Shown: positions 4,457-62,000, counted from the first letter of the stretch. The stretch is 64,000 nt of DNA from a virus (IMGVR_UViG_3300045988_126226:67035-131034); one strand, 5' to 3'. Made by a program: numbers and translations. Notes: generated from the letters alone by a model not told the origin.

Positions 4457-4485
4457 TTGACTTTTATTTAAAAATATTGTATAAT
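4457..4485 (+). promoter_or_regulatory. Consensus promoter TTGACT-17-TATAAT
   Basis: Near-perfect hexamers with a 17-nt spacer. Confidence 0.55.
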
Positions 4486-4524
4486 ATTTATATAAAGTAA
4501 TGGAAAGGAGTAATTTATATACAT

Positions 4525-9254: not shown

Positions 9255-9323
9255 TATGAATAAGTAAATTATAGAAATTCTTAAATAATAGTGGTGGTAT
9301 TATGAAAGGAGGTTGAATAGCCT

Positions 9324-15830: not shown

Positions 15831-16071
15831 ATTCAAGTATTAATGCTATACTTGAAAATAATATGTTTCTTAAGGACGCGGATTTAGCTTAGGATTTAAA
15901 TTCTAATTTAGAACTTTTTACCCATGACTTAAATGTAGAATTAGATGCGTTAAATTCTATGATTTGTGATAATATAAATAAGATATCAACTCGGTCAAGA
16001 GATTTTGCTGATTTTTTAAAAGATATTCGTAGTATATGCGATAATTATATCTCTCGATTTGATTATTATTA
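15808..16071 (+). CDS. Hypothetical protein (1 TAG)
   Basis: ATG 15808; frame open through TAG 15889 to TAA 16069. Confidence 0.4.
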
Positions 16072-16097
16072 AATAATATGATAATATATAAATATAA

Positions 16098-19000
16098 ATG
16101 AAAGATGAAAGGAATGTGCGAATGAGATCATATTTCGGGATTCACAATCATACAATGTATTCAAATTTACGTCTATTAGATTGTATTAATAGACCGCAAG
16201 CTCTTATTGACAAAGCGATAGAATTAGGCCTATCAGGAATAACTATTACAGACCATGAATGCCTTTCTGCGCATATGGAAGTAAATCAATATGCAAAAAA
16301 AATAAGAGAAGAAAATCCTGATTTTACTATTGCTCTTGGTAATGAAATTTATCTCACTGATACAAGAGATAACGGACAAAAATATTACCACTTTATTCTT
16401 ATTGCTAAAGATGCCATCGGACATAAAGCATTAAGAGAATTAAGTTCTATTGCTTGGATTCATAGTTATGTTGATAGACGTATGGAACGAGTTCCTACTT
16501 TAAAAAGTGAACTTGAAATGGTAATGGAACAATATAAAGGACATGTTATAGCAACAACTGCTTGTATTGGTGGAGAACTTGGTAGCTGTATTTTACCAAT
16601 GTTCCAAGCAGAATTAAATAAAGATATTGAAACTCAAACTAAATATTATAATCAAATAATTGATTATATTAATTTTTGTATTAAAGTATTTGGAAAAGAT
16701 GATTTTTATCTTGAATGTGCGCCATCTACTGATGCCGAGCAAATAATTGTAAATCATAAAATTTATCAAATTGCCAAGGCATTTGATTTAAAAATGGTAA
16801 TTGGAACAGATGCGCATTATTTAACTAAAGAAGATAGACCCATTCATAAAGCATATCTTACTTCTAAGCCAGGAGAAAGAGAAGTTGACGATTTTTATAA
16901 ATTTACTTACTTAATGACAAGTGATGAAATTTTTGAATTAATGGAACCTTATGCTAATGATTGGGATAAAGATAATAAAACAGGAAAAGAATTGATAAAT
17001 TGGATTCTTGATAACACTCAAGAGATCCAAAATAAAATTTCTTTTTATTCATTAGAAAGAAAACAAATTATTCCAAAAGTTGAAGTAAAGGATTATAAGA
17101 AAGGATTCATTCCTTCAAATTGGTTTGATAAATATCCAATTATCTGTTCTTTAATTAATAGCGACAATATTCAAGAACGATATTGGGTAAACGAATGTAT
17201 TAAAGCTTTACAAGAAAAGCAACTTTATGATAATAAAAATTATTTAGAGCGACTTGAAATTGAAGCTGATATTATAAAAGATATCGGCGAAAAATTAGAT
17301 GACTGTCTTTTTGCTTATTTTAATACTTTCCAACATTATATTAATTTATTTTGGGAATGTGGAAGTATCGTAGGTCCTGGGCGAGGTTCTGCAACTGGCT
17401 TTTTATCTAATTATCTTTTAGGTATTACTCAATTAGACCCAATTCGTTGGGGACTTCCTTATTGGAGATTTTTAAATAAGGAGCGCGCAGAATTGCCTGA
17501 TATTGATATTGACCTTGCCCCAAGCAAACGTCCTGCGATTTTCAAAGCAATTAGAAAAGAACGTGGAGAATTGGGATTGGTTCAAGTTGCTACATTTGGA
17601 ACTGAAGGCACTAAACAAAGTATTTTAACTGCTTGCCGTGGATATAGAAGTAAAGAATTTCCAGAAGGAATTGATGTTGATAATGCTCAATATATGTCTT
17701 CATTAATTCCCCAAGAACGTGGATTTTTATGGCCTATCCATGATGTTATTTATGGTAATGAGGAAAAAGATCGTAAACCTGTTCAAGCATTTATTCGAGA
17801 AGTAAATCAATATCCTGGTCTTTTGGATATTATTGTATATATTGAAGGAATGGTTAATAAACGTTCTTCTCATGCTTCTGGCGTTATTTTATATGGCGAC
17901 GATCCATTTGATACTGCATCATTTATGAGAACTCCTAGTGGAGATATGATTACTTGTTGGGATCTTCATAAAGCGGAAGCCGCTGGAGATACAAAATATG
18001 ACTTCCTTGTAACTGAAGCTTCTGATAAAATTATTACTTGTTATCAATTACTTCTAAAAGATAAGTAGGTTCCAGAATTATCTTTACGAGAATTTTATAA
18101 TAAATATATTCATCCAGAAGTAATAGATACAACTGATCAAGCAATTTGGGACCATCTTGCCGCCGGTGATGTATTAGATGTATTCCAATTTTCTACGGGA
18201 GTTGGTTTAGCGATAGCGAAACGTCTTAAACCCCAAGACCCTATGGAAATGACAGCAGCAAATGCTATGATGCGTCTTATGTCTGAAAAAGGTAAGGAAT
18301 CACAGCAAGATAGATATTATCGCATTCAACATTCGGGTATTAAAATATTTGATGATGAAATGAAGGCTCAACATCTTCCACAAGAATTAATTGATAAGAT
18401 GCATAAGCATTGTGATAAATATTATGGATGTTGTCCTATTCAAGAGCAAATGATGGAAATTCTTATGGATGTAGCTCATTTTACTCTTGGTGAAGCTAAT
18501 ACTGCGCGTAAGATTGTTGCTAAAAAGCAAATGGCTAAAATTCCACAATTGAGAGAACAAGTATTTAGTAAATTTGATAATGAAAAATCTGCTGAATACT
18601 TTTGGGAAATCGCAGTTGCTCCTCAATTAGGATATGCATTTAGTCTTAATCATTCTCTTCCTTATTCATTTGTAGCAATTCAAATGATTTACTTAGTAAT
18701 TCATTTTAATCCTATCTATTGGGATACCGCTTGCTTAATTGTTAATAGCGGTTCCCTTGAAGATAATAGTGAAGAAGAGATTGTAGATATTTATGCTCCT
18801 GAAGGTGATGATTTAGCTAATGGAGCAACATTTGAAGATCTTCCTGACAAAAGCGGCAAAATCCGCAAAACCGCGGCTACTGATTATGGAAAAATTGCTA
18901 AGGCCATTAGTGATATTCAAAAAGCAGGAATTGAAGTAGGTCTTCCTGATATTAACAAATCTAAATTTGGATTTGCTCCTGATATTGAAAATAATAAAAT

Positions 19001-33993: not shown

Positions 33994-34044
33994 TAAAAAA
34001 ATTAGGTTAAATAGTTTCTTTTCCTATTTAACCTAATTTTTTTT
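33994..34044. terminator. Bidirectional terminator hairpin
   Basis: attaggttaaata / tatttaacctaat 13-bp stem between A7 and T8 tracts. Confidence 0.55.
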
Positions 34045-34072: not shown

Positions 34073-34273
34073 TTAAACCTCATACCATTCTTTTAATTCA
34101 CTTTCAGGAACTAAAGGAGAGATGGAAAAAAATTCTTTTCCATCTCTCGTTAATTTCTTATTGTAATCTGCTATTAATCTATACAAAGTAGTCGCAGGAA
34201 TTCCTGTCAACTATATAGAAGATTCAATAATACCGTTAGAACCCATATATCTATAAACAATTTCTTTTTCCAT
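34073..34273 (-). CDS. Small hypothetical protein (66 aa)
   Basis: ATG 34273, 1 TAG, TAA 34073. It lies directly after the stop of the giant gene. Confidence 0.35.
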
Positions 34274-34282
34274 AATTTATCC

Positions 34283-37200
34283 TCACTTTACAATAGGCTC
34301 TTCTTCAAAATTCGCTCTATTAGATATCATTGTTTCATAAATATTGTGTAAAGTATTCTTAACACTTTCACCATAACTAGCAACATAATAATATCTAAAA
34401 CGACCTGTATATCCATTAGCAACAGTAGGCATACCTGTTTGACGAGGGGTAAAAATATTACCAGAACTATCTGCCGTAATCTATTTAATTGGATGTTTAT
34501 TAGTGCCAATCTGTACTTGAATAGCACCAGTATAACCCTTAAACTAATTACCAGACATATTTAAAATTGTCTAACCAGAGAACGCATTTACATCAAAGTT
34601 AAGAATACCATCTTTACATCCTTCTATAATTAAATTATAAGGAGAATAAGATCCCATCTTACTTTGATAGAATGCTTGAGCTCCAAAAGTCAAACCTTCC
34701 GTAGAAGAAGAATAAGGAATTATATTATTACGACTTAAAGGACATTGATAAAATGCTTTAATGCCAATTTTCTTTAAACAATCACTAAACTAAAAATATT
34801 CCAATCCGCTATCTAAAGTAAAAGCATAATCATCTATTACAGAAATTTTATTACTGTCTTTTGGAGCAAAAAATACTGCTGTAATATTACGATTTACTTG
34901 GATACCCACTGCTGCGGATGGATTAACTTGACTGTATTTAATTCTCGTAATTGGCTAACCATTATAGGTTGTAGGTAAAGTGATTTTACCTTTTAAATTC
35001 TTAGCTAAATCAGTCATTACAAATGATAATTCTCCGTCAGAATTTATAATATCATAATATTTATGAGTAGAATCATTAACTAAGATATTGTCATAAACAC
35101 TAACTGGTTCTCCAACAGCATAGAACTCGCGGTCGGCATAAGCTAATTGTTTAGTTAAATCAATTTTAACTCCATCTTTATCCGCCCATCCAGTCTATCT
35201 CCAAGTCCATTCCAATGGGTCTTCGCCCTCCGGTAAATCAGTTACTTCTGTCTTATTAAAGTAATAAAATTCTTCTGGAACAGTAATTTTTTCTCCATAA
35301 TTAAACACTTTTTTTACAGTTGAATCATTAATAACGCGATCGCCATTAACAAAAGTAATTGTATAAGATTTACGTTCGAATTTTGCTTTAAAAATATAAT
35401 CCATTTTATTAGGAAGTAAAGACAAAGAATTCCAAGTGCTTTTTAAAACGACATCTTCTTCATTTACATTTTTTCCAATAGCAATTATTAATTCTCCTGT
35501 ATCGTCTTCCCAACCTTTAAAATCATAAGTTGGCATTTTTTCTTGTAAGCTACCAAAAGAGATATAAGTTTCACTTTCAGGATTTGTTGGATCATCAAAG
35601 AATTTTTTACCACTCGATGATGATAATTTCTAAGTTTTTAAAACTTCCTAAACCAATACTCCATCAATGTCTTCTTTTTCTAAAATAAATTTGGCAGAAT
35701 ATTCTGACTTAACATTTTCTACAAAAATTGTTAGATCAGGATATTTATTCTATAATTCATTCTAAATAACAGACTCATTAATCTAACTATTATTTTTTAT
35801 ATACACAATACCAGATATTTCAGGTTTATTTGTATTAAGACCTCTATAATTATTATAAACGTCAATTAATAAATTATAATCAGTTATTACGCTATGATCA
35901 TCATTGTCTCCATTTATTGTATCTAAATAATAAATCTAATTATTTTTAATATCAGATTTTGTTATTTTATTAACCTAGTCTTTTGGAATAGCAGTTAACT
36001 AAAAATGTCCATTATCTCTATAATAAGATTTCCTTTCTGGATCAAGAGTTGTTTTAGTATCAGTAAGAAGTCTATATGGGCTCCACTAAATATTATTTAA
36101 ATTAATAATACAATTAGATAAATCTAATTTACTATTTTTACTAGCCGAAACATATTTGCGTAATAATTTATAACTATTATAACCTAAATTACCGCCTCGA
36201 ATATCAAAAGTTCTTATTTCGGTTTTTTCTTTTCCTTCTTCGGCATCAGTAAGATCCTAAATATATAAGCCACGATTTTCATCTAAAATTTCAAGTTTTC
36301 CAGTAATCGAATTCTTTTCAGGATATACATAATTAGTTATTAATTTCGTTAATAAATTAGCTTCTATTAAACTTAAATAATTTGTTCGATTGGTTAAATA
36401 TAAAGTATTTAAAGCTACTCCAGGAGCAAAATTAACTCTTGGAATATTAGATTTAGTATTTCTAAAGTTTTCAAGCTTTTCGCTCTTAGTTAAATCTAAT
36501 GCTCCTTGGTCTTTTTTAAAGTTAATATTGCAAAGATTTATTTCTTTAAGTAAAGGCATTCCACCTTTTGAGAAAGACCAATCGTTTACATCATTATTAA
36601 AATATTCATTACCACTTTCATCTTTCCCGTCATACCCTAATAACAAATCAGTTAAACGCTCCATTTTTCCTTCAGCAGCAAATTCTTGGAAATATAATTT
36701 ACTTAAATCACCGAGAGATTTCATTTGATCCATTCCATAAATATAATATAATTGTTCTTTATAATTACCGCTACTTATAATTCCTTTTTTAATATCAGGA
36801 GCTACATATTTAACTGGTTCTAAACCATTATATTTCTTTGAAGGAAAATTCTCTCCATCTGTACCAATAGTAACATAGGCATTGCGCGCGGGCTCCATAC
36901 TAATCCAATATTCGCCATCAAACATATGATTTTTTTCTTCAAATTCAACATTATTTTTCCAATATTGAGAATTTGTAATTAATCCATCCATATTCTAAGT
37001 ATTAGTGCCTTCAATCCATTTATCAGATGTATTTTTAGGATTATTTGCAGAAATACGGCTTCTAATATAACTTCCTCCACCATTTCTGGCATAAGTACCA
37101 ACAGTTAACCAAGAGTCAATATAATTAAGACGATTGGCTAAAAATTGCGCACGATAAAGATTTCTATCTCCTTGTAAAGCATAAAAATATTTATCATCTT

Positions 37201-40200
37201 CAACCTCATATGACCCTCCGTCAGTTAAGCGACCAAACACTGGCATATTTTCAGCTTTAGAATTTGTTGGAATAATATACTTAAATTCTTCATCTAAACT
37301 TAAAGCAATAATTGGTCGATCTCCCAAAGCAGCGTAGCTATCAAGAAATACCGATGGATCAGTACGATACCATTTATCTACAATATCACTTTTTTTAGCC
37401 CCGCTTCCGGCTCCTTTAGTAAAAATTTTATTTACTCTTGAATCATTTGGACTATAAGAATTATTTTGAGTTCCCATTAATTGCTTATACTTATCCACCA
37501 TCTTACTTCTAAAGAAAGTGTAAAAATTATTCCAAAGAACACTATCGTTAGTTGAAAAACTTCCTTCTTCAGTAGCATCAATATAGTATTCAAAAGATGG
37601 GATACCAGTATTATTAATACCTAATTGAGTATCAATATCATAAAAGATAGGATACCAAACATAATGTTGTTTGCCAGTAGATTTTTGAACATTGCCTTTT
37701 TGAGGCCCCCAAGAAGCAAACATTGCATTTTTTCCACGAGAATCATAACATTCAAAAATTTCTGTCATTAAAAGGTAAGAAGCTAAATATTCAATATCAA
37801 AGAAATTACTTAATTCATTTTTAAATTTAGCTTGACGGTATTCTTTACTATCTTTAGTATAAGTAATAGAGCCATAGGTTACGGGGTTAGGTAATTTCCA
37901 TCTTTCCTCAATACCTTCTTCATTTTTATTAAAAGAATAATAATCTAAAGAAGAATTAAATTTATCAGAACTTAATACATAAATTTCATTTTTACTATCA
38001 GTTAAAAGATAATAAATATTTGCTTTATATACTTTATCTGAATTATTTGTAAGTTTTATGCTTACATACTTTAAACTATTATTTTCATTAATCTACTTAT
38101 AATATCTTGTTTCAGAGTTATATTCTTCAGAAGTTAATTTATAAATAATTTTTCCATTTTCATTAACTCCATCCTCAACATAATAGACATTAGGAACATA
38201 TATGGCTTCAGCTAATCCATCAACTTTAGTATAAATGCCCATAGATGGAATTTTTAATTTCTATCCATCATCAAATTCAATATCGCAATCTAAACAAGTA
38301 CTCCATACCCAACTAACTGCGTCTTCCCAGTTAGACATTAAAGCTAAGAGCAATTCTTGTTTACTTGTATCATTAGCAACATTAAATTCTATTTCTTCTC
38401 CATCTGGATTCTTTATAATCCATTTAATAGATTTTACACCAGTAATTTCATCAACTATTTCTTTTTTAGTAAGTCTATCTGGGGCTACATTTTTTAATTC
38501 TTCCCCAACAATCTTAGTCTATGTCCCATCTGGATCAAGCCATTCTTTTAAACTAAATAAATTATCAGCAATTAAATCATCATTTGGATTATATCTAGGC
38601 TCAAAAGAATCAATAACTTTTGGCGCACCTTTAATTAATTCAGGATTATCTCCGTCTGGAGGTATTACCATATTAGGATTTCTAAATGATAATTTATAAC
38701 GATTCCAAGGATCACGGAAAGAACAAAAAGTTCTTGAGTTGTTCTAAAATTCCCAACATTCTGCCATATCTCTTACTTTAGGACTTCCAATAATTTGATT
38801 TTGTAAAATCTTTTTATTTGGCTTAAATCCGAAACACTCATCTGAGCCTTTATCTAATAACATATTATATTTGCCAATAAAAATACAGTTATTACTATTT
38901 TCCTTAGAGTAAGTATTATCATCGTTGGACATATAGTGGAAAGCTAAGACGGGGAATCCTTTTACCGAAGTGCGATAATCTTCTAAATTTCCATATAAAT
39001 TATAATTATCAAAAGAATCTTTATAGTCTTCTACTGGATGTTTAGAATAAATCTCGTTAACTAAATTAGCAAATCCTCTATTATAATCTCCAGAAGATTC
39101 CATAAAATCTATTTTTAAAGTAAATTTAGTAGTACCGACTGTCTTATTATCCATATAAAACCATTCTAAATAACAAGGATGTTTAGTTATATCTTCATTA
39201 TACTAGTCTCCTGCTTTTTTATAGTCTTCAGCAAATGGACCTCTATTTAAAAGCATTGATTCTTTGCATTTAGCTTTATAATTACGACGAGGATAAAATT
39301 GTGAAGAAGTACCTTGAACTTGGAAAGTACATCCATTAAGAACAGTTATAAAACTAGGACAATGATGCATATAATAATTCTATACCGCAGTATATTTTAC
39401 TACTTCTTCCTATGTTTCTTCATTTTTTTCGATTACAGGTTTCCATCCTTCTTTTATAGCAACTTTTTCTAATTCACCACTATTGTAAGCAGCGTCTAAA
39501 GCAGTGTTAACAAATTCTAAAGTTCCTTCCTAGCTTCCTTTTGCTTTAGAATAAGGTAATCTATTATCCGTATTATTTTTATTATTTTTAGTAGTCCTTA
39601 GAATAATATAGGGCATTAAAGGTTCAGTCGGATGATTATCATTATACTTTTTCATTTTAGTATAAGAAAATACATCATCTTTTAATACCGTATTGTTTTC
39701 ATAAAGATCTTTTTGGTCCCATTGTTTTATACTTCTCTTATCAAAAGCGTAATTTTGGACTATTTCAGGAATAGTTAAATCTGTATCATAAACTCTAATA
39801 CTATAAATATCAATATCACAAGTATTAGACATAAATTTAATGAAATCAGAATCAATATTCCAAACATCACTACTACAACGTACAACACTAGTTAAAACGC
39901 CATTCATAAAAATTTCTAATAATTTAGAATTTCCGCCTTCTATATCACTTTTCTTTTTAGTATAAACAAATGAAAGATTTAGCATTTCATTTTCAATAAA
40001 ATCAACTGAAACTGTTTCTTGAGCGCCATTGGCTGTAAATACAGCATCCTATGGACTAAAATAAATACCAGGAGATACAGAGCTTCCTAATTTACCATAC
40101 GCACAAACTAAATTCTTTAAATTAAAGTCTTGTTCTATTTTATTATACTCTAAATCATCATAAGTATAATTAGTTGTCGGTAAATATTCTTTAGTTAAAA

Positions 40201-42031
40201 ACTCATCATAATTAAGATATTTATTTTGGGCTTTAAATTTATCCCAAGCATCATTATCTTCCCAATTATCTTTACTTACTTTATATCTAGTATATTTAGT
40301 TATAACTTTAGCATAATTTTGAGGATTCTTTATTTTAAATTGAATCTCAATAGTAGCAGATGATGATCCATCTTTAAAAGCCATTTTTCCGACTGGGATA
40401 GATACTTCAGCACCATTACTTACTCGTAAACAAGTCGTATTATTTTCATCGAAAATCCAGCCATTATTATACCAATTAAAATTTTTAAATTCTACGTATT
40501 TATTATTATTAATTAAATAAGTTTCACGGCCTAATTTTCCCTCTGAATTAGAACGACCAGTAGCTATAAAATTAACTTTTAAATTATCTTTTTTTGCTAA
40601 TTTCATATCTCTTAAAGGATCAATTAAAATTGTAAAATTAAAATTACGAGAATAAGAATAAGGGTCAGTACCAACTTTAATAGTATAATAAGAGCTATCA
40701 TCTACAGTTAAATTAGTAATTTCCCAATATTGCCATTCTCTAACCTGTGAACTATCTAATTCTCTAGTTCCTACTTGAACGCCATTCTTATAAAGAGTTA
40801 TAAAAGCTCCATTATTATTTGGGTCTAATACTTTAAAAGGAATTCTTATTGTCTCATAAGTATAATATTCTGTCTTAAAATCTTGTACCCAAATTAAAGG
40901 CATTTTATTGCCTGATTCTTGAATAACAATTTCCTTTTGAATAAAATCTGTTCCCGCGCCTTTTTTAGAATTATTCATTAAATACAACTTTGCTTTTATT
41001 ATATGCTCACCATGAGTAAAATAATTTTTTAAAGTAGAAACTTTGTCAACCCCTAATATATTTGTATCAGGAGTAATAACAAAAGAATCTTCAGAAGAAG
41101 AATCAGTATCACTATAAGTTCTATCTAAAACTAAATAATCATCAAAATAAACTTCAACAGATCTGGCGATATCTTCAGACATTAACCAACTAACAGATAT
41201 TTGTCCATTATCAATTGGACTATCATTACTAAAACTACTTTCTTTCCAGCTAAAAGAGAGATGATGCTTATTAATATTAATAGTATCAGAGCTTTTCTAA
41301 AATCTATTATTTTCTTCATCAGGATTATAATAAATACTAAAATTAATCTCACTAGAACATGAATTTCTTAAAATATTAGTTAAATCAATTTCTTGTGAAA
41401 TATTATGTTCATAAGTAGTAGGAGGAGAAGTGTAATATACTTCTTTTTCTGTAGCACTTTTAATTTCACTTATAGTTATAATTCCTTGCACAGAAGAAGA
41501 TTGCGGAACGCCACCAACAGTTCTACATTTAACCAAAACTTTTACTTTAACATTTTCTTCATTTAAGATATCAACAGGGCTGTCAGATGGAATTCTTGTT
41601 AAAGAAACAGTTCCTAAAACTTTTTGTTCAGAGTCTCCTTCTCCGCCACCGCCCGCCCCGGCGACAGTTAATTTTTCACATCTCGCACATTCTTCGCGGT
41701 TTTCATTTAAAGCAAAACCTAAAATTCGATAAAAACATCCGTCTAAATTTAAAATTAAATCATCTATATGACAATTTGTTATAGATAATTTTGATAAAAG
41801 AATTAAATAAGCCACTGGGTTTTCATCCGCATCATATTCAATTTCCACAGTATTATCTGTACCGTAAATTACCTGAACACCACTAGATCCTATTGGCATT
41901 TTATTTTCAGTTGCCGTATCTAAATAAACTCGGCCTGTATCTGTTGCCACATAAAAATATCCATCGCTTTGAGGATATTCTTTTATTTTTTCTTCTGGGC
42001 CCTATACAGGACGAAAACGTATCTTAGACAT
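34283..42031 (-). CDS. Giant multidomain virion/tail-associated protein, about 2582 codons, TAG-dense
   Basis: RBS agaaaggagt plus ATG 42029-31. Frame (position mod 3 = 2) carries dozens of TAGs but no TAA/TGA until TGA 34283-85. It unites ORFs 41297..41950, 40049..41182, 39530..39985, 38744..39154, 36995..37768, 36257..36991 and 35195..35536. The gaps between them were checked codon by codon. LRR-like and beta-sandwich-like segments are present. Confidence 0.6.
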
Positions 42032-42051
42032 AATTTACTCCTTTCTATCCT

Positions 42052-42090
42052 AAAAAAAATATGGGGAAAGAATATTTCATCTTTCCCCAT
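42052..42090 (-). terminator. Terminator hairpin
   Basis: atggggaaaga / tctttccccat stem next to an A-tract. Confidence 0.5.
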
Positions 42091-42149
42091 AAAAACATTC
42101 TTCTATATAAAATAGAAAAAATTATATTTATTATTAAATAGTATTGCCC

Positions 42150-43796
42150 TTAGAATGTTCCCCACTCTAACTCAAAATTAACTTTAGCATTATCGGTCAC
42201 AGTTGCCGCAGAAACATTAACCTTTAAGCTATCACTAGCGAAAACAAGTGGTTTACCTTCAAGATCAGCGCCAGCAACTTTGAGATTAGGAATTAAAGTA
42301 TCAGTACCATTTACTGTATAATCTGCGTTGGCAATTTCTTGGTGAGTATTCTTTACAGTAAATGTTTTTTTAGTAGATTTAATTACATGGCCTTGAGCAT
42401 CAATTTCAGTTGGTTCATTAATAACAATAGTCTACTCATCGGCATAATCTTGAGAGACTGGAGTATTCACAGTTAAAGTATTACTATGTTTAATAGTAAT
42501 TTCTTTCACTACTGAACCAGTTTGAGCCTTTACTTCTAACTCAATACCTTCTTCACCTTTAAGGACATAATTTAAAAGTTCTTTAGTAGGACCAAGCTTA
42601 ATAATAAATCCAGCATTACTGTTATCATCAGCTCCTTCAACCTCAGTAACAGGATCATCAGCAGAAGGAACATAAGTCCAACTAATAGTACCAGTAATAA
42701 CACCATCAACTTCTTTACCAGAAGCGATAATTAAATCTCCAGGACGTAAGTAATGACCGTTCCAAAGAGTGTCTTCAGCGCCAGTATAAATAAAGGTATT
42801 ACCTTCAGCAATTTCAGTAATATCAGCGCTATCATAAATAATGGCTCCATCTTTAACGTGGAATCCGCCACGGAATATCATAGCGTTAATAGTTCTAAGC
42901 TGATTATCAATATCTTGTTTACTATAAACAGGAAGAGTTAAAACACCATGTTTAAATTTATAACTGCCATCCTTGCCTTCTAAAGCAATTTCTGGATCAA
43001 TATCAGCAGATAAAGTTGTACTATTACCAGCTCCTTCAACACCAGGACCGCTAATAGAAGCAGTAAAACCAGTACCATTAGCGTGATTAATTATGTTGAT
43101 ATCATTAACTGCTTTATCAACACTTAAAGTATAACTACCAGCGGGGTTTTCAGCAATATTAACATTACTGCCAGCGATAATATTAAAATTACCCGCATCA
43201 GTATCAGCATTTTTTAAATTAACATTTAAAGTTTTACCACTTAAAGAAGAGGTTAATTGATAGTTAATTCCTTTTAAACTTAATTTAACAGTATCTACAC
43301 CCTTATCATCAACAGCAGGAACTGCTTCAACTTGAATATAATCACTACCGATAATATCATAAGTCTCAGTAATAATATTACCACTGCTGTCAGCAATAGT
43401 ATTGGTTATAGAAGCGCCATTGGGTTTTTCAGGATTACTATCTACTGATACATTACTAACTTCTTTATTAGTATCTAAAACAGTATCAGTGTTAGTTTGA
43501 ATCCAACCTTTACCATTATTAATACATAAGATATTTTTATCTTTTACATAATAAAATTCGCCAGCAGTATTTTGGTTAAAACTTTGAGGTAAACCTGCGG
43601 TAGTATCAACTACATTAATACCTTGATTTACAGGAACACAATTATTTTCATCTACACCATAATAAAGACGACTTGGTTTTTTATAATCATCAGCGGATTT
43701 ATTATCATTAATTACTAAATAAAACGCACCAGGTTTATATCTACCTGCCACCTTTTCAAATTCGGCTTGAGAGCCTTTTAAAAACTTAACGTTCAA
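42150..43796 (-). CDS. Tail fiber protein
   Basis: TTG 43796 with RBS aaaggagtg. N-terminal KFLKGSQAEFEKV...AFYLV phage-fiber N-terminal pattern. ORF 42432..43796 continues through TAG to TAA 42150. Confidence 0.55.
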
Positions 43797-43810
43797 TCTT
43801 TTTCACTCCT

Positions 43811-47111: not shown

Positions 47112-49418
47112 TTAATATACTCTTGATATCGCTTTGGTGGCACTAATAGACATTGAACCATTATAAGTTAATGGAATAGTTATTTTATTAACTAAATATT
47201 CTCCTTCAACGCCACTTCTTTTATCTTCAATATAAATTCTATTATTAGGCTCTAAATAATAAACTGGAATAGTAGAAATTGAAACACTTTCCGTGCAGTA
47301 AGCGGTCGTGTAAAGTAAATCTTCAATCTCATCAACTGCGCTTTTACCCTTAGAGCTAATTTTAAAATAATTATCATATCCAGAAGGAATATTAATCCAA
47401 ATATATCCACTTTCTGTTGGATAATTATTCTAAACGATAGAATCATAATCAGTCTATGTCATAAATAATACATCAGGGGTATCTCTATAACATATAACTT
47501 TTACATTAGTATCATTAATTGCTTTTGTTCTATCTCCAATCAATTGGACTGAATATTTAGCAATATCCGCATTTTCTTCCCCAATAAAATCAAACCAGAA
47601 ATTTAAATTTTCAGGATTATTCTTTACTTCTTCCTTGAAATCTAACTTATCATAATCGTAAATATCTCTCCAGAAAGAGAATAAATCTACATAATAAGTT
47701 TCATAACCAGTTATTCCAGAAGGATAAAGGTCAGGATTAGCGGCCGCCACTTTACTGACAAAATCATCTGCATAATTATATTGATAATAATCTACGGCCA
47801 TACGATATAAAACTTCACGCCAATCGCAATAAATAACTCCCGGTTCATTTTCGCTTTGATACCATTTGTTTTTATAAGTCTTTTGTTCTAATTGCGGATT
47901 CATAGTATCAAAAATATCATTATTATACATTGTAGATTTATACCTATTTATATCATTATCATTCACAGTAATTGTGGTATATTGGATAGGCTTTTGATCT
48001 ATTGCATATCTTAAATGAATAGGAATTTCTGCCCCACTGGCGCTTTCTCTCTATCCCCAAATAGAAAAATCATTTCTTAAATTAGCAATCTATGGAGTAT
48101 TATTAAAAGAAATAACCGTCTATCCATCTCTAAAAGAATAAATTGAAGAAGAAGAATAAATCGCAGGCTCAATATAATTATCCCCATTAGAATTCTTTAC
48201 TATATTATTCCAAGATTGATATTCATAAAATTTCTTTCGCTAAAAAATAAATCTACCATCTATATCATAGTAATACTCGAAACAACTTAACATATTTTTA
48301 ATTTTGTCTAATACATTAGTTATATTTTCACCAACACTTGTAATAAGTTCTCCTGCATAGACTAAATCACAAATACGATAACCAACTGTTTCATTAGTTA
48401 TTCGACTTATAATAGTGTAAATAGTTCCATTATTTACCAACCTTACTTTAGTCGGTTCAGAAGCATTATCTAATAATTTATTGCTACCTAAATTATCGAA
48501 TTTAATACTACTTATATCAGTTATTTTATTATTATTTATATCTAATAAAGTAGGCATTGTCCCTATCGAAGCATTAACTATTCTATTTGTTTGTGCGTCT
48601 TTAAAAAAATACATAGTTTCATCACATTTATTAGCTAATAATTCATAACCATATTGATCTAAATCATTAATAACTATATTACTTTCTTTTTCTTTACCAT
48701 AAACTGTAAGAAGTTTTTTAATAATAGTCTAAATAGGAATTTGAATTAAATTTAAATAACTTTCTCTTAAATAATATTCTTTATTACTAAATTCTTCTTC
48801 ATCTAAAACATAATAAGTAGTTTGTTTATTCTAAGTAGAAATATAATAAACATTATGTTTCTTAGCTTCTTCCTCACTATTGACAATATAGCAATATTTA
48901 CCTTTTATGTAGTTATCTTTGGTTATATTATCTTGTTTATTATAGGTATAAGTAATTACTTCTTCCTATCCAAAATCTATAGAAGCAGGTAAATCTCCTC
49001 CTAAATCTCCATTTAATAAACACATCTTATCTTTGCCTTGAATAGAGATATTATATGAACTAGCACTTTGAGAAGTATTAAAAGACGTAATTAAATAAAT
49101 GCCTTGATTAAACCAAATAATATCTGGATATTTATTATCAATTTTATTTTCTAATCCAATAGCCAAACTAAACTTAGAATTTAAACCCCAAGAATATTGC
49201 TTATATAATTTCTCATTTGTGGCCATAGTAAGAGAACAAGACCGGCGGACCGCAGATGTTCCATCAATATTAATTGATCCACCGGTTATCTTACCCTCTA
49301 TACTTTCTATTGGTAATTCATCAAATGTTAGTAATTCAATACGAGCATAAACTACTTTATGTTTAAATTCATCTAACTTTTTAAGAAAGTCGGTATCATA
49401 TTGTCTTTGAGTCTTCAT
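47112..49418 (-). CDS. Tail protein (about 768 aa; Tal/Dit-like candidate)
   Basis: RBS gaaaggcggtagagga plus ATG 49418. ORFs 48966..49418, 48240..48614 and 47454..47966 are in frame; TAA 47112. Confidence 0.5.
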
Positions 49419-52287
49419 AATCCTCTACCGCCTTTCTTAAAGTATCAATAAATAAAGTATATGTTTCATCAACTGTCTTTTGTAATCCTGCTACTTTATT
49501 ATTATAATTTTTTATACAAGTCTAAATATTATTCTAATTCACATTATAGAATGGATCATCTTTAGTGAAATCAGGATTACTTTTATCTTGTTCTAATTCT
49601 TTAAAATCTTTTAAGGCCTTCTTAGCTCTTAACCAATTTTGCTTTAATTGATAAATTGTGGTTGTAATATAATTCTAACCATTAAAAATTCTATAAGTAG
49701 TTTGATTATCATTTTCAAAAGAATAAACTACTTCTTGACGTTGGACTGATAATTCGCATAAAACACCTGGATCGATTTCAATAGAAGTAATATCAGTTAA
49801 GTCTTTAATCTAATATTCATTCTTCTAATCAATACCAATAATTTGTTTATCATCTTCATTTATTCTAATATTACAAGCCCAATTCTTTTCACTAACTAAT
49901 ACGCCAGAATCATAAATTTCTTTCTTAGTATATCCATCAATATAGTAATCTTGTTCTTCAGTTTGACTTACTAAATAGATATGATAAATTAAGGTAGGAT
50001 CAAAATCTACACGTTTAATTTCTACAGAATGATCTTTTTCTCCTTCTTCTTCACTAATTGCTCCGCCGGGAGTAGTATAAAAATTAACTTTATTACTTGT
50101 ATATAATTTCTATACATCACGCTTAGTAAAACGCAAGAAATAAATCTATGTTACTTTGTATTTAAAATCATCATTATAAAGATTTAAAATATTACCTTCA
50201 GTTCCATAATATTGCTCTAAAGGCAAATCCGCAACTTGAATATCATTAATAGTATCAAACTTACTTGCCTGCTTGCCATAATAAGAATATACAATAGTTC
50301 CTTGCTATAAGCCCACGTCAGATAATTCTACTACTTTAACACTATAGATTGGAGCAACATGATCTATTAAATAAGCTCCTGTAATACCAATAACAATTTC
50401 TTCTCCATCAATGCTGAACTTATCTCCAGGAGCAAAACCTTCAAATCGAATCGTTATCGCAGGAGAATTAGCTAAAATATCTTTGGTCTATAAACTATAA
50501 TGATTTCCGTCATAAAGTAATTCAAACATAGGATAAAAACTTAATGTTTGTAATAAATTATCTAAACAAGTTTGTTTATTTGCTTGTAATTTATTAATTT
50601 CTACCTAAGTCAGATTTTCATCTTTCAAGTTATCAATATAAGTATTTACATCATCAATATAGCCATTAATTTTATACCATCCATCAAAAGATACACTATC
50701 CCATTTAAGAATTTCACTTTCAGGCGGATCTGCATCAATAAATCCATAAGTAGTAAGATTATCAAAACTAACTTTATCAATCTCATAAGCGGTTCCGCTA
50801 AATGTATGAAGCATACGACCTAATTTATCTTCTGGACTTAAACTTACATTTAACAAACGCACAATAAAATTTCCTTCGGTTGGAGACTTAAATAACTTAG
50901 GTTCTCCATCAGTTAAAAATTCTAAAGCTTTAGTTTTAAATTGACGCTCTATATTAATATTATAGTTAGTCAAATCAGTTGATGTAAAATCTTTAATTTC
51001 ATCATCGCCCAATTTATCTATGAACAAATGGTCTTCATCCATAAGATAAGAAATTAAACCACTTACCGGGAATTCGTGATAATAAGTGTTTCCATTCCTA
51101 AAAATATAAGGATATTGGCTTCCAATAGTATCGGTTTTACTTTCAAGAGTATTAATTTTAAAACTACTTACTTTTGGATTAAATCTTATTTTTAATAACT
51201 ATCCATTGTTATATAAGAAGCTATCTTCAAAAATACTATATACACTATTAGAAAAGATTTTATTACTGCGGACCGCAGTTTCGTCGCTATATTGCTGAAC
51301 CGCATATTGATAACTAAACCCATGCTCGACAGTAAAATCTCTATATAATTCTCTTGATGGAGTTTCACCAACTAATTTAAATTTTAATACTGTATTCCAA
51401 GTGTTGAAATCATCTTCGCTACTGGCTCTTAATAAAGCAAAAGCCCCAGTAGCAGGAATTTCCAACCCTGTTTTTTTATCGCGGATTCCATTTAAATTAA
51501 TTTTTACATATCCATTATTTTCATCCATAGTCGCGGAAAGTGTTGCTTGTAATTCTGGATTAATAGTTTCTCTATTAATGATTTGGTATCTAACACTCTC
51601 TGCTTCATAGTTATTAATAGTAGTTATAGAATATTGAATAAAATAATTTTTATTTTTTTGTAATTCTTTATTTAATTCAAAACTATCATAACTTTCATTT
51701 AATTCTGTATCATTGATTGAATTATGTAATTGCTCTCCACTATCAGCAAAAATATTACCATTTTCATCATATACTTTAAATCTATATGAATAAACTTTTT
51801 CAGTAATATCATCATTTTTTTCTTTTTGACTATATACTCCAATAAAATTTGTTTTATTTATTCCTACTAAATTATCTTCAAAACCTTTTATATAAACTGC
51901 GGGCTTAGTTGTGCATTTAGCAATACCAACTGTAGAATAGTATCCGACCACTCCATTAGTATTAATATATGCTAACTAAATTTTATAAGACTATCCTGGA
52001 TTTAATTTATACTGAATAGGTTTTCCATTATTAGTAATTGATTTAAGATTTATATTGAAAGTAATAGACCCTTGTTCTAAACAACCGCGGACTTTGCTTG
52101 GAGTAAAATCCGCGGTTGTTCCCTAAGCAATTACTACATTACTTGATACTGTTTTAATTATATAACACAATCCTGAAACTTCTGCCATACTAACTGCACG
52201 ATTCATTTGAAATGGAATAGTAATTTCCTATCCAACAAATGCCGGTAAAGTTCCAGATATAATAGGTGGATATAATTTATTAACCAT
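49396..52287 (-). CDS. Large tail protein (about 963 aa)
   Basis: RBS aggaggg plus ATG 52287. Frame scanned continuously through ORFs 51199..51951 and 50605..51042 to TGA 49396. Confidence 0.5.
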
Positions 52288-56052: not shown

Positions 56053-59000
56053 TTATTTTCTATTGGCATACTGAGAAGCTACATTAACTAATGTATTAAA
56101 TGCTTCTTGAATTTCATATCTATCAGTAGCGTTCGGGAAACTAGCTTCAATTCTAACATTCTGTTCTAATGTTCCATCTTGAGAACTAACAGTAAATCCA
56201 GAAGAAGAAAGAGTAGAGATTTGTTGACTATTGAAATCTAATTGTTTTGCGATCTATCTAACTAATTGGATAGAAGCTAACATATTTTCCGTATCATCAG
56301 CATTAAGAACTAATTCTTTCTAATGTAAGAACGCTAATTTTCCGCTATCATTCCAAGTACCAGTATAACCACCGCTTCTAAATCCGACTAAATCTCTCCA
56401 TTCCTAATCAGTAAGCTGAGTAAAACTATACTTGCCGTTAGGAAGTCTACCAGAAATTTTTCCTTCACTTAACAATTTATAATACGCATCAACTCGAGCC
56501 GTAGTATCTTCATTAATACTACCACCATTAGCAATTTTTTCTTCACGGTTTCTTTTATACTGATTATATTGAGCGGAGCCATAAGCTACAGTACCCATCA
56601 TCGCCGCCCAATCAGTATCTCCACCACTAGAACTGCTATTACCAAATCCGCTCTAAGCGCGCAATGTCGCTTGAATGGCGTTCAAAAGCTCTTCATAAGC
56701 TCTAATAGTATCAAGTAATTGCTGACGATGTTGTGCCCAAGCTTCAGTAGCACTACGAACAGAACTTAACTCACTTTCAAGAGCAGGAATAACTCTATTA
56801 GATACTTCTTGATAAAGTTTATTACTTTCATCAGTAACATCTTTAACTTTCTATTGAGTATCTTTTAAATCATCACCAACAATTTTACTAATTTCATCCA
56901 TGCTATCTTGCCATTCTTTAAATGTATCATTGATAATATTAGTGTTTTCAGTAATAGCATCTTTCCAACTATTACTATTATCTTTGATAATATCAAAAGA
57001 ATTTACCCAAGCATCTTGAACGACTCTACTATCCTCCTCTTGAGCTTTCGCATAAAGGTTTCCAGCAGTAGTAATTAAATCAGTATATTGTTGAATTACT
57101 AATGCGCGTTCTTGCTGATATGTGGTCTCGCGGTAAACGGCATCTTCCGCGGCTTTCTAATCAAGTTCCGCAAGTTTGTCAGCCAGCTCTTTCTCATATT
57201 GAAGTTTTTGTTGACCATATTTATTTGTCGCATCAAGACGAATGTTATATAAATCATTTTCCGCGTCTGCTAAAGCCTATTGCGCATCATTTACTTTCTC
57301 TTGGTCTGCGGTATACACATAACCAAAATTACCTTCATTATCGCGTTGTAATCTAACCGTAGACTTTGCGTTTTGAGCTTCTTCTAATGCGATTTGTGCT
57401 TCAAGCACTTTATATTTAGCCTAAGCAATTTCTAATTCTAATTGACTTAATTTATCTTTATCTCTTAACTATTCAATCTCTTTGGTAAATTGCTGGTATC
57501 TATTTTTAGCTGCTTGATTATTTGTCTTATCAATAGCCTAATTAACATTATTAAGTAGTTTATTCATTTCATAAATCTAATTAGTTTTTGTTAAATACTC
57601 ATCTTGATAAGAAGACATTCTATCCAAAGCATCATTTAAAGCATCCCAACCGGAAATATTAAAGTTCTTACCATTAATACTCACTTTAGTAGTGCTTAAT
57701 TGCTTATTCATTTCATCCGCAGCTTGTTCCATCTTTGTGGTAAGAATTTCTTTTAACGCTTCGCCATATTCTTCAGCTTTAGAAAGCATATCTTCTTCCG
57801 CTTCATCGAACGCGGCTAATATAGCATCATAATTCTTTTGAAGCACTTCACGTTCCGCCTCATCGGTCGAATTGGCTAAGGCCGCGGCCGCGGCATCACG
57901 TTCACGCTTCAAGCTTTCATACCATTGTTTAGAAGTATCAAAATTATTTTTCTTAGTCTAAGCAGTTCCATTTAAAACTGATAAAACTTTATCATAATCT
58001 TTATCTTTACCTAACAAAGTAATAATAGAACGATAATGATCCAATACACTAGTCAAATGCTCCATATGATCTGTATATTTAGACAATTCATCATTTGCTA
58101 AATCTATAGTATTACCATAATATTCAAGCATTTCTTTATCTAAATCCTACAAAGCATTTAAATTATCTAATGTATTATCATACACGTCTTGTAAGCCTTC
58201 GATATAATTTTCTTGAGAAATTTCTCCATTAGAATAAGCATTGTTTAATTGACTATAGAAATTCTCATAAGTTCCTAATTGACTAATTACTGGATCAAAT
58301 TGACCTTGTAAATATCCAAGAGCTTCAGCGGCTTTATAGATATTATCACTTAATTTATCAAAATAATATTCTAATTTCTTAGTATCATTTTCATCTAATT
58401 GAACCTTTACTTCAACTTCATAAGTAAGCATTTGATAATTTCTGTCTTGCCACTCGTTTATTTTATCTTGAATATCATCAGTTAATTCTTCGACTAAATC
58501 TCTTGTATCTTCATATTGGCTAATGGCATCTTTTAACTCATCAATTTTCTTTTGAATCGGATCTAAAGTTGCTTCTTTATAAGCATCTTGAGCATCTTTT
58601 GTAGAGAAAGAATTTGCTTTATCCTATGCGGCTACAAGCTAATTATAAAGTTTAGTCATCTAATCAGTATAATTAGAAATATCACCATCTTCATCAAATG
58701 TGAAAGTAATTCCAGCTTTTTTCGCAGCTTGCTATAAAGTAGCTTTATCTGTCTTTAAATAAGCCTAAGCTTCTTTTTGCTTTTGTTTTAATAAATCAAC
58801 TTCTTTTAAAGTTAACTTATTGCTTTTAGCCATCGCATCAAGATGAGCTTTACCCCAAAGCCTATCCGCTGATTTATTAGCTTTATCTAAAGCACGAGTA
58901 GTATCGTTGATGCTATCAGTTATTTCTTTATACCTATCAACAATATCAGATTTTTTAGATTTATCAATTTTAGAAGGCTTAGAAGAAGAAGAGCCACCAC

Positions 59001-62000
59001 TTGATTTACTTCCCCCTGATCCTCCAGAATTGGTAGAAGAATGATTGTTCGAACTGCCAGTAGCTTTTCGCCAGAATCCTCTAATTTTAGGAGGAGTTTT
59101 TCCACCACTAAAAGATACTAAACGCATATCGCCAGGAGATTTTGTAGGCTCCTCAGCTTTTGTTTCTGTTCTTGTTGTAATTGAAGGTAAATTAATAGTA
59201 TGTTTACCCAAGAATCCAAGATCAAAAGTTTTAGGATTGTCAAATTTAGTATCTACCACACGAGTAATAGTTTCAGCATTTGGCATCTCCGCAGAAGTGT
59301 CAATATCTTCTGCATTATAAACTGGTTCATAACCAATTCCCGCAAAATAAGCATTTGCTTCATCTGCAGTCATCTAAGATTCCTTAACTAAGTCGTTAGC
59401 TGCTTCTAAGAAATCAGCGTCATCAACTTTTGCTCCGACCTCAATTGTTGGATCAAGCTTAGAGCAAGCATCTTTAACTTTCTAGTCTAAAGAATTTATC
59501 TAAGCAGTAAATTCTTCATCTTGTCCTAAAGTAATTCTAGCAATAATCTCTTCATCCATTGAACTTCTTAAAGAATCAATGGCTTTTTCATCGCCTTTAG
59601 CCGCTTTAGCAATTTCATCTAAATGGTTAGTAACAAAATCATCTGAAATAAATTCTTCTTCAACATCAAGAACATCAGATAAAGCAGAACGAGTTTTAGC
59701 TAAAGCATTAAAATATTCTTGACTACCCTTAGTGCTATTCTTTAAAATATCATTCCAAGTTTCAAAATTACCTGATAAAGTTTCTACTCCTTTATTCATT
59801 CGAGTAATCTAAACTGCTAAACGAGCAGCTGCGTTAGCGTCCTAAGAAACACTGTCATCAAATTCTGATGAATTTTTAGATACTTCAAGAATATAAGAAG
59901 CATAATCTTTCATAGACTAAACTTCATCATCACTTAATCCCATTTCTTTACCGGCATTAGTAAAGAAATCAGACATACTATTTAATTCTCCGATAGCATT
60001 TAAATCCTTAAGACCATCTTTAAACTCATTAATAGTTACCTATCCACCAGCTAATTGCTATATTAATCTTTGATAAGCTTCGCTTTGTTTATCTATATAT
60101 TTAATACTTTCACTAAAATTCTATAAATCTTCTTCAGAAGTACCATAGGCTCTAACGATTTTATTAAAATATTTAGTGCCTAATTCTGTATCACCAAAAG
60201 ATTCTTGTAAGTTTCTCTAAAAACTATCTAAATAATTTAATTGATTTAAATCTAAATTACTTAAATCTATACCGTTTAAAGATTTCTGCAAAGTATTCTA
60301 TAAAGCTGTAGTAAATTTTTCAGCTACTTCAGGAGAAGAATAAGCTTCTGCTAACTAACTATAAAATTGATCTGCACTAACTTTTAATTCTTCATCATCA
60401 ACTTTCAAAATCATATTACCATTACGCTAAGCAACATAAGATACATCTTCATACCCTTGCTATTTAAGTAACTACATATAATCTTGAATTTCTTGCTCAT
60501 TACCGCTATAATTTATATGTTTATTCCATTTAAAATCTTTCTATAATTTAGACTTCTAATCCGCAACCGTCTAACTATAAATATCTTCTCCATTAAATAA
60601 GTCATTTATTTCATCAACAGTTCTATCACTTCCAAGAGCCGAAAATTCTGCTTCTAATAAGTTATTATATAATAATTTTCCCTATTCTTTTAAAGAAGAA
60701 TTTTTAGTTATCTAATCTTTATTCTCCAAAATAGATTGATAAAATGCTTCAACTGTATCTTCCTCAACATTTTCAATTCCAGCCCCCGTCGCGTCAGCTA
60801 TTGCATTTAATAATTCATTAGCCCCTTCTTTTGTATAAATCATATTCCCAAAACTAGGATTGTCGGTGGCATTTTGAATTATTTCATTTAACTAAGTCTT
60901 AGTAAGATTACTGCCTCCCAATGTTGACGCGACGATTCCTAAGCCACGACTAGTATCTTTAAATGAGCTATAGCTATTTTCAATTTGCTAATTATTTAAA
61001 GCAATCTAATCTTTTATTTTTGTGGCAGTTGCTACTTTAAGATTTTCTTTTTGAGACTCTTCTAAATATTTTCGTCCTTCATCACTAATGTCCATAGCTC
61101 CATTTTCATCGGCGCTAATATATTTAGATAACTCAGGATATTTCTCTAATAATTTAGTAATTTCAGCATTAACATCAGAAATAGCTTTATACCACTCAAT
61201 TGTTCCAGGAACTAAATCACCAATTGTATCTTTATAAGACTATAATTTTTCTAATGCTGAATTAGTTTCATCAATATTGTTATTTAATTTATCAAAAGCT
61301 TCAGAACTTGCTTTTGCATTTTCTTCTAATTTCTTTAATTTTGCTTCTGGAGTGCTTTCCTACATTTTTTTAAACCTAATAGCAATTAAAGCTACGGCTC
61401 CCGCTAAAGCAATAAAAACTCCAACCGCGATAAGTGCTGTCGCAGCAACTAAATTTATACCCATTTTTGCGGCCAATAAAGCTGCTGTCTAAATTAATAA
61501 ACTATTAGCAAATTTAGTAGAAGCCAAAGCCGCCTAAATCTCTGCTAAAGTCATTTTTTTAGTAATAACTACTTTACCTTTTCCTGCCGCAGTATTAGCA
61601 TTTATAGCAATAGTTTCAAGCAATGTCTATGCTGCTGATTTTAATTGAACAGCAGTTTTCTTTAATTCTGCTTGTTTAAATTGATTTACAGCAGAAGTTA
61701 AAGAAACTAAAGCCATACTTAAAGACATAGTAACCGATAATAGTTTGTCTCCAATACTCATATCTTCATCTTGTAAAGTATCAATAGCTCCTTTTAAAGA
61801 CATTAATCCCATTGCTAAAGAAGAAAGAGCTGTAAAACTCTAAGTAATTGATTTACCAAAATCATTTAAAGCACTTTGATATCCGCTAATAGCACTTTTT
61901 ATTTCAATAAACTATTTACGTAATCCTTTATTACCATTTTTTACAATTTCAGTTTTTTCTTTTAATTTTAATAAAGTATTTCCTAAATTTTCTGCAAGAT

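Follow-up and report, generated by a model that had tools for sequence, protein, structure and literature searches.

In the 64,000-nucleotide (nt) viral stretch IMGVR_UViG_3300045988_126226:67035-131034 (the window, by which we mean the whole stretch of DNA analyzed), the minus strand between positions 34,283 and 42,031 is interrupted by TAG codons. Does this region hold one very large gene or many small ones, and what might a product of such size do for a phage? An earlier note, made without database searches, had claimed a single open reading frame (ORF) of about 2582 codons in a tail module, running from a ribosome-binding site (RBS) and an ATG at 42031 to a TGA at 34283. We find that the region is one frame in which TAG is translated as glutamine (genetic code 15). 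The evidence as a whole points, with a probability of about 0.72, to a single code-15 late gene of a ~193-kb gut-type phage, whose product is a distal tail fiber or receptor-binding protein with a CotH-type core.

One reading frame with TAG as glutamine

Translation of 34283-42031 (minus strand) gives one frame of 2,583 codons, with ATG (42031-42029) first and TGA (34285-34283) last. This confirms the extent and start of the claimed ORF. Among its 2,582 sense codons are 28 in-frame TAGs, and there is zero in-frame TAA or TGA before the terminal TGA, so none had been overlooked. The nearest in-frame stop 5' of the ATG is a TAA at 42037-42035, two codons away. Seven standard-code ORF fragments (41297-41950, 40049-41182, 39530-39985, 38744-39154, 36995-37768, 36257-36991, and 35195-35536) share this frame, and the gaps between them hold only TAG, as had been described; an eighth standard-code ORF (34327-34527) is in a different frame. 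An open frame of this length is far beyond chance. Given the base composition, 2,582 codons would lack both TAA and TGA with a probability of ~1e-80. The longest TAA/TGA-free run in 50 whole-window shuffles was 182 codons, and the other five frames of the same region each contain 126-401 TAA or TGA codons.

TAG behaves as a glutamine codon when homologous genes are compared. We compared the DNA of five homologous loci (L001-L005), four of which are recoded and carry 28-40 in-frame TAGs at partly different positions. In these four relatives, TAG sites align mainly with TAG or CAA/CAG. In the codon-level alignment, glutamine from other recoded genomes faces TAG in 40% of cases against a background of 1.9%, a 21x excess. 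The runners-up are lysine and glutamate, which is the substitution profile seen for CAA, and CAA faces TAG in 18%. The first in-frame TAG, codon 10 (42002-42004, minus strand), is TAG in the window, L002, and L003, CAA in L004, and AGA in L005; unsuppressed translation would end there after 9 residues. The standard-code relative, L005, is 36% identical and has an uninterrupted ORF of 2,575 codons with 0 TAG, ending in TAA. TAG makes up 35% of glutamine codons, and CAG is nearly unused (3 codons).

The segments between TAGs evolve as parts of one protein-coding gene. Against L002 (81% identical), the ratio of nonsynonymous to synonymous polymorphism (pN/pS) is below 1 in 19 of the 20 inter-TAG segments of at least 25 residues. 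The exception is the last segment, amino acids (aa) 2518-2582, with a pN/pS of 1.13 against L002 but 0.11 against L003, from the swapped tip described below. Of the 29 segments that stops would delimit, ten lack any codon at which translation could start, and three of these (aa 835-873, 1926-1981, and 1983-2010) are still under purifying selection. A standard-code reading covers at most 72% of the region, even when the requirement for an RBS is ignored. Furthermore, TAGs are located within folded domains of the giant protein, its kinase core included.

Window-wide, TAG accounts for 35.5% of glutamine codons in the minus-strand structural block versus 8.3% in the plus-strand replication block, and the adjoining tape-measure-like ORF has 71 in-frame TAGs in its visible part. 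The giant gene has 28 TAGs and the tape measure at least 71, so that full-length products would need near-complete suppression at each codon: at 0.97 per codon, 0.97^28 = 0.43 and 0.97^71 = 0.12. Outside the structural genes, a RecJ-like ORF at 9306-11072 (plus strand) has 7 in-frame TAGs. A small glutamine-rich ORF at 28673-29155 (minus strand) has 8 TAGs in 160 codons, or 53% of its glutamine codons. Standard-code gene callers break the 7.7-kb gene into pieces, while code 15 turns it into a single interpretable receptor-binding candidate. The same gain in annotation applies to the entire structural block of a widespread group of ~190-kb phages.

A family of giant proteins with a CotH-type core

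The giant protein belongs to a large family of proteins of similar size. An identical 2,582-aa protein, with TAG translated as glutamine, is already one called gene in a public collection (P0001, 401 member sequences, on contigs up to 193 kb). Its contig measures 192,919 bp, of which the window corresponds to ~94,098-158,097. Homologues are graded from 96% to ~20% identity, and nearly all are 2,100-2,900 aa long. A HMMER search with a profile of the core against 1.84 billion cluster representatives returned 1,932 matches at E<=1e-3 and 616 at E<=1e-30. The best of these are again nearly all 2,100-2,900 aa, and the core occupies the same relative place in them. The earlier note had thought the size unusual; in this family, giant length is the norm. 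IMG/VR contains 75 or more loci of this phage group, and many of these are on contigs of 180-200 kb.

Domains were assigned at the level of the family because Pfam is nearly blind to the giant protein when it is searched as a single sequence. On the whole protein, Pfam and PHROGs gave only a sub-threshold LRR_5 match and two PHROGs of unknown function, and a segment-by-segment Pfam search with relaxed thresholds found no reliable match in aa 1-135, 470-800, 1150-1395, or 1700-2010. We therefore used a 30-member full-length alignment and mapped Pfam scans of 18 diverse members onto the window protein. These scans detected LRR_5 in 10 members, CotH in 4, Laminin_G_3 in 4, and Flg_new in 2, plus LRR_8 and LRR_4. 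The assignments of CotH, laminin G (LamG), Flg_new, and LRR_5 regions given here rest on this family-level evidence and on structural evidence.

The family-defining feature, missed by the earlier note, is the core, which is modeled as an atypical kinase domain of the CotH type, with a variable insertion between its lobes. PF08757 matches three homologues (P0078, P0081, and P0083) at 31.8-47.3 bits, above the cutoff of 23.8, over a region that maps to window aa 1066-1564; the window protein itself has no PF08757 match at E<=0.01. A core profile (aa 875-1715) retrieves CotH-kinase-annotated proteins (Tannerella, E=2e-53) and other PF08757 carriers. An AlphaFold2 model of the core built from 49 sequences reached a mean predicted local distance difference test (pLDDT) score of 76.5 and a predicted template modeling (pTM) score of 0.80; an earlier AlphaFold model from 9 sequences, with a pLDDT of 45, was not used for fold matching. 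In a viral structure library, the same fold is found in uncharacterized siphovirus proteins and in gp353 of Bacillus phage G. Foldseek against the PDB with the core model returned no match, and sequence-profile searches of the PDB with four alignments never reached CotH. Matches to single-chain variable fragments in a PDB profile search were rejected as spurious, being due to a glycine-rich linker.

The core is also the best conserved part of the protein. Column identity is 0.53 at the N-terminus, rises to a maximum of 0.73 at aa 1401-1500, and falls to a minimum of 0.27 at the C-terminal tip. The N-terminal kinase lobe (aa ~885-1150; 38582-39379, minus strand, as are all features of the giant protein below) contains QGTSS (906-910), N917, K919/K921, and K973/D975. 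A beta-rich insertion of ~240 aa (aa ~1151-1390; 37862-38581) then splits the kinase; it is poorly conserved, confidently modeled, and absent in compact members. The C-terminal lobe (aa ~1391-1715; 36887-37861) is the most conserved stretch of the protein and holds the motifs D1430-x4-N1435 (nt 37727-37744) and D1465-x-D1467 (within nt 37628-37642). QGTSS, N917, K973, D975, and both aspartate motifs are invariant in 18 members down to ~20% identity, and K919 and K921 are invariant in 30 closer members. Across the family, the core segment ranges from ~390-435 aa in compact members up to ~1,075 aa, with one outlier of 1,544 aa.

The invariant residues are of the kind expected in a catalytic site. 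In CotH, the substitutions D228Q and D251A abolish activity (PMC7821199). The spacing of the aspartate motifs in compact members, 22-24 residues, is compatible with the distance from D228 to D251 in Bacillus subtilis CotH, an equivalence drawn from spacing and not from a residue-by-residue alignment. Because the catalytic-type motifs are invariant, we put the chances about even that the kinase core is active, either during assembly in the cytoplasm or on host contact. A more tentative proposal, which we hold to be possible yet on the unlikely side, is that the fiber carries an active CotH-type kinase that works in the infection cycle, either poly-phosphorylating serine-rich segments of virion proteins while particles assemble or phosphorylating a host surface protein or glycan upon contact. 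If so, this would be a kinase activity borne by a structural protein without characterized precedent in phage tails, and it would explain why the core is the most conserved part across at least 1,900 clusters.

Domain map and mosaic tip

Around the core, the giant protein is a chain of predicted adhesive modules. A conserved N-terminal module (aa 1-125; 41657-42031; column identity as given above), marked by the motif PxxxGxxYxATDTGxxYLDT that recurs in the neighboring fiber-like gene 30569-31600, is followed by a glycine-rich linker (aa 124-131) and by a variable beta-rich spacer (aa 136-480; 40592-41626) with low conservation and sub-threshold matches only. A LamG or concanavalin-like lectin region follows at aa ~480-790 (39662-40594). 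It is recognized by conserved motifs and by the Laminin_G_3 domains of other members: the matches in P0078 and P0081 map to window aa 655-757. A match to PHROG 14959 spans aa 655-1070.

Beyond the core, a middle leucine-rich repeat (LRR) region lies at aa ~1790-2000 (36032-36664). It contains the LRR-like peptide quoted by the earlier note, which we found at aa 1825-1858 with M as its first residue and not L (MPLLKEINLC...). P0081 and P0072 have LRR_4 matches that fall short of the Pfam cutoff (E=0.0036) and correspond to window aa 1812-1888. Next come Listeria-Bacteroides-type (Flg_new-like) repeats at aa ~2150-2290 (35162-35584), assigned at the family level; Flg_new matches the window protein weakly (E=0.024) and 2 family members, with a best E of 1e-8. 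The distal tip, aa ~2300-2582 (34286-35134), is assigned by the family profile to BspA-type LRRs (LRR_5). That profile matches PDB entries 4fs7 and 4gt6 at ~1e-30 to 1e-28 over the C-terminal region. LRR_5 occurs in 10 of the 18 members, with a best E of 2e-56, and the window segment scores 25.2 bits versus a cutoff of 27.7. Thus, the LRR-like and beta-sandwich-like stretches that had been noticed in the translation correspond to the LRR_4, BspA-type LRR_5, and Laminin_G_3 regions of the family.

The tip has a different history from the rest of the protein. From ~aa 2250 on, it is 97-100% identical to L003, while the remainder is 46-88% identical to the same relative. Against L002, the closest relative overall, the tip is only 29-55% identical. 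This identity pattern delimits a cassette at aa ~2250-2582 (34286-35284), and such a switch is the sequence signature of recombinational exchange of a putative host-range cassette.

Tail-module setting and proposed role

The giant gene lies within a minus-strand block that has a tape-measure-like ORF upstream, large unassigned ORFs after the tape measure, and several fiber-like genes. PHROG 1887, a "tail protein" family, matches 47112-49436, also upstream of the giant gene. With fiber-like genes on its flanks, the gene is placed in a tail module, as had been proposed from the layout of the region. A hidden Markov model of the first 125 residues matches a 341-aa fiber-like gene at 30569-31600 (E=8e-7). 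The match, through the motif PxxxGxxYxxxDTxxxYxDT, hints at a docking module common to the two products, and the N-terminal module is best seen as a putative attachment domain. No hydrolase domain was found in the giant protein, which leaves the suggested cell-wall processing unsupported, and host adhesion is the best reading of the roles that the earlier note offered.

We propose the following model. With a first TAG at codon 10 and 27 more behind it, the product would have to wait until the infected cell suppresses TAG almost completely, and this gating would tie its synthesis to the structural-gene program. The conserved N-terminal module would dock the protein to the tail tip. The beta-sandwich and LamG-like lectin modules, together with the two LRR blocks, would form an extended adhesive shaft, with the BspA-type LRR tip as a host-range cassette that is swapped between lineages by recombination. 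Within the shaft, the CotH-type core probably still binds nucleotide and transfers phosphate, since catalytic-type residues are invariant across the family. Such a protein would link late-gene gating by stop-codon reassignment, giant modular adhesin-like fibers, and a strongly conserved CotH-type kinase core. Its LRR and lectin modules are of the same kinds that gut bacteria carry on their own surfaces. An interesting question is what such a well-conserved kinase-like domain contributes to a phage fiber.

Several observations weigh against this model. ARAGORN detected no suppressor tRNA in the window, in the five homologous loci, or in the 10 kb left of the window, nor did 22 IMG/VR relatives show one in the 10 kb that lie upstream of their tape-measure genes; Rfam at gathering thresholds had no match in the window. 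The DNA searched for a tRNA or release factor came to roughly 80 kb, against a genome of 192.9 kb, and none was seen there. The window protein is below Pfam thresholds for CotH, LamG, and Flg_new and just under that for LRR_5. We infer the location of the giant protein in the virion, and a kinase on an extracellular fiber would have no obvious supply of ATP. A search for sheath and tube proteins upstream of the tape measure met only generic "virion structural protein" families, so that a sheath is not rigorously excluded and the label "siphovirus" is unproven.

Alternative explanations

Two alternatives concern the gene itself. If TAG were a genuine stop, the long frame would have arisen incidentally, in a row of short genes or in a decayed pseudogene. 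Translation table 11 does split the region into fragments, with seven of at least 60 aa in the frame, and no suppressor tRNA appeared in the DNA examined. However, a frame of this length has a chance probability of ~1e-80, and three start-less segments long enough for the test are under purifying selection. TAG interchanges with CAA/CAG in relatives, and the standard-code relative has the gene uninterrupted. TAGs lie inside folded domains, and the neighboring tape-measure ORF, an essential gene, carries 71 of its own. The evidence therefore points to read-through, and termination at TAG is effectively refuted. A further suggestion of the earlier note, that several normally separate tail genes had been fused, would, as a recent event, agree with the great length and many modules of the protein. 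Against this, the same domain order and a length of 2,100-2,900 aa recur in hundreds of divergent clusters (at 50% identity). The same architecture is present in phages of 43-48 kb that have separate upstream tail genes, namely the tape measure protein (TMP) and Dit in NatCom_3357 and a minor tail protein in Hankyphage, and the window has separate large tail genes after its tape measure. No module resembles Dit, Tal, or baseplate proteins, and among ~160 homologues none was seen to have the modules as separate adjacent genes. A recent fusion is thus very improbable.

The other two alternatives concern what the protein does. The CotH-like core might be a catalytically inert scaffold or ligand-binding module in a protein that is purely an adhesin, as proposed for the CotH invasins of Mucorales. 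This would fit an extracellular virion with little ATP, a window protein under the Pfam threshold for CotH, and a domain that is split by 240 aa; moreover, the mapping of its motifs onto D228/D251 of CotH is inferred and not residue-by-residue. Yet D-x4-N, D-x-D, QGTSS, and the Lys/Asp pairs stay invariant to ~20% identity while their surroundings diverge, and conservation along the protein peaks in the catalytic-loop stretch, a pattern expected of an active site and not of a scaffold. We regard an inert core as a serious alternative, though one that falls well short of probable. Rather less probable is that the protein is no virion fiber at all and instead acts as a late-expressed kinase effector with adhesive modules, in host takeover, envelope modification, or superinfection exclusion. 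ATP is found only inside the cell, the kinase core with its invariant catalytic-type residues is the most conserved part, and manipulation of host signaling was suggested by Roux et al. for homologues linked to diversity-generating retroelements (DGRs) (10.1101/2020.04.01.020958). Nevertheless, the gene sits among tail and fiber genes, and in small relatives it occupies the position of the receptor-binding protein. Its N-terminal motif is common to a neighboring fiber-like gene, and BspA-type LRR, LamG, and Flg_new are all surface-adhesion modules. The distal tip is hypervariable, through a DGR in Hankyphage and cassette exchange here, which is typical of receptor-binding domains.

Flanking signals and other genes of the window

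The start of the giant gene is marked by a Shine-Dalgarno sequence, AAAGGAG (42038-42044, minus strand), 6 nt 5' of the ATG and kept in relatives L001-L004. A terminator-like hairpin with a 12-bp stem and T8 (42060-42091, minus strand) lies 3' of the preceding gene, 42150-43802. The hairpin is strong and stands between the two genes, so expression of the giant gene is not a simple continuation from the gene before it. Sigma-70-like promoter matches in the region are at shuffle level (52 versus 51.1 expected). Just past the giant gene is a small TAG-free gene of 66 aa (34073-34273, minus strand), which begins 10 nt past the stop. A TAG-free gene of 66-72 aa is found at this position in 5 of 5 relatives, the standard-code one included, and its product may be an assembly partner of the giant protein. 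A perfect 14-bp inverted repeat inside it (34117-34148) was considered as a terminator of the giant gene and rejected, as it lies within coding sequence (RDGKEFFSIS) and has no T-run. Further downstream, the genes 31668-32288 and 32294-34006 (both minus strand) have a paralogous domain in common (DHAAEIIYFEIDRYFD / DHLAETIYFQIDRYFD; 62-nt repeat, 79% identity).

The tape-measure-like ORF (56053-63999, minus strand) runs off the window and encodes at least 2,648 aa; a 92%-identical relative (L009:9671-17938) has 2,755 codons from stop to stop. Tape measures usually correspond to ~0.15 nm of tail per residue, which would make this tail roughly 400 nm long, one of the longest known. At aa ~1651-1680 of the visible fragment is a Ser/Lys-rich stretch, NNHSSTNSGGSGGSKSSGGSSSSKPSKIDK, the only one in the minus-strand ORFs. 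It resembles the Ser/Lys/Arg-rich repeats that are phosphorylated by Bacillus CotH. It is tempting to speculate that this stretch is a substrate of the kinase-like core of the fiber.

A response-regulator receiver-domain gene (PF00072, 238 aa in the public gene call) lies at ~29363-30079 on the plus strand, opposite to the structural block that surrounds it. Public gene calls of L001 include a weak dUTPase match (172 aa) ~4 kb further, near window 24.6-25.1 kb. A 49-nt promoter-like element (TTGAyTTTT ... TATAAT-like) is present in three copies (1864-1912, 4457-4505, and 16059-16107, plus strand). Standing ahead of plus-strand, mostly standard-code replication genes, these copies are candidate early or middle promoters. 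In the 10 kb left of the window (L008), the replication module goes on with gyrase B/A-like subunits, RNase H, an ATP-dependent DNA ligase, and a GIY-YIG nuclease.

The phage group is widespread, since contigs with its 315-aa YorF-family protein (window 2323-3270) occur in 276 blocks of the collection. Copies of the fiber gene are also found on 120-175-kb contigs in metagenome-assembled genomes (MAGs) labeled Mollicutes/Tenericutes, Erysipelotrichaceae, Clostridium, Ruminococcus, and Lachnospiraceae (L084-L090). These contigs are probably whole phage genomes that were mis-binned by composition, and the labels give a weak hint of low-GC Bacillota hosts.

Comparison with known systems

Both the recoding and the protein class are already known. 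In code-15 gut phages, recoding marks late and lytic genes (10.1101/2021.08.26.457843; PMC9523058). As in the crAss-like, Lak, Jade, Sapphire, and Agate clades (Borges et al., 10.1101/2021.08.26.457843; Peters et al., PMC9523058), TAG here behaves as glutamine, in-frame TAGs are concentrated in structural genes with replication genes mostly standard, and the genome is of the same size class. No suppressor tRNA or release factor was seen in the roughly 80 kb searched. The published model in which recoding gates late genes fits this phage.

The core resembles the CotH spore-coat kinase (Bacillus cereus 5JDA; B. subtilis CotH; PF08757) in its D-x4-N and downstream aspartate motifs, which are of the kind where mutations kill activity. 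CotH, too, acts on an extracellular proteinaceous assembly. In contrast to CotH, the domain here is split by an insertion and embedded in a 2,582-aa fiber-like protein, and identity is only 15%. Phage CotH proteins of this kind have been remarked on as unstudied (PMC8008677). The family tip, in turn, matches BspA-type LRR surface proteins (PF13306; 4fs7, 4gt6, 4h09, and PcpA 4cp6) at E=1e-30 to 1e-18. In gut Bacteroidota and Bacillota, such modules serve adhesion at the cell surface, whereas here the module forms the distal end of a phage protein.

Two annotated homologues place the protein among phage tail genes. In NatCom_3357 (PV036416.1, Ca. Heliusvirales), the homologue is a 1,673-aa hypothetical protein that the family profile covers almost from end to end (E=4e-161); its gene is preceded by those for TMP, Dit, and an 800-aa protein and followed by the holin and endolysin genes. 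It is ~900 aa shorter than the window protein, lies in a 47.6-kb standard-code genome, and has a pairwise identity of 22-24%. Hankyphage (Bacteroides phage p00, BK010646.1 31489-38226) encodes a 2,245-aa DGR variable protein of the "PC_00012" or "domain group 3" class of >2,000-aa CotH-containing DGR targets. The family profile matches it collinearly, beginning with the beta-sandwich/LamG region, across the two CotH lobes, and as far as the middle LRRs (E=6e-80). It is giant as well and directly follows a minor tail protein. Other DGR targets are of similar build: a viral CotH-like target of 2,284 aa has been described (10.1101/2020.04.01.020958), and DGRs of Bacteroides prophages have ">2,000 aa multi-domain variable proteins" with CotH (5JDA), carbohydrate-binding motifs, and LRRs (10.1101/2024.11.15.621889).

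We considered whether the window protein is itself a DGR target and rejected this. The window has no repeat of the template repeat/variable repeat (TR/VR) type: its longest repeat families measure 45-62 nt, with 60-80% identity, and the sole copy within the gene (D3, 47 nt) is 64-72% identical to its partners. None of the genes called within 10 kb is recorded with a reverse-transcriptase family, and the C-terminus is LRR and not C-type lectin. Hankyphage, at 43 kb and with a standard code, has a protein whose 3' end bears the DGR variable repeat; this end is a C-type-lectin variable region, mutagenized by the adjacent DGR (TR/VR repeats and a reverse transcriptase). The protein of the ~193-kb, TAG-recoded phage studied here ends instead in Flg_new-like repeats and a BspA-type LRR cassette that varies by recombination. 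Thus, the same fiber tip appears to be diversified by two routes, DGR mutagenesis in Hankyphage and cassette exchange here, a distinction that would be useful for predicting host range.

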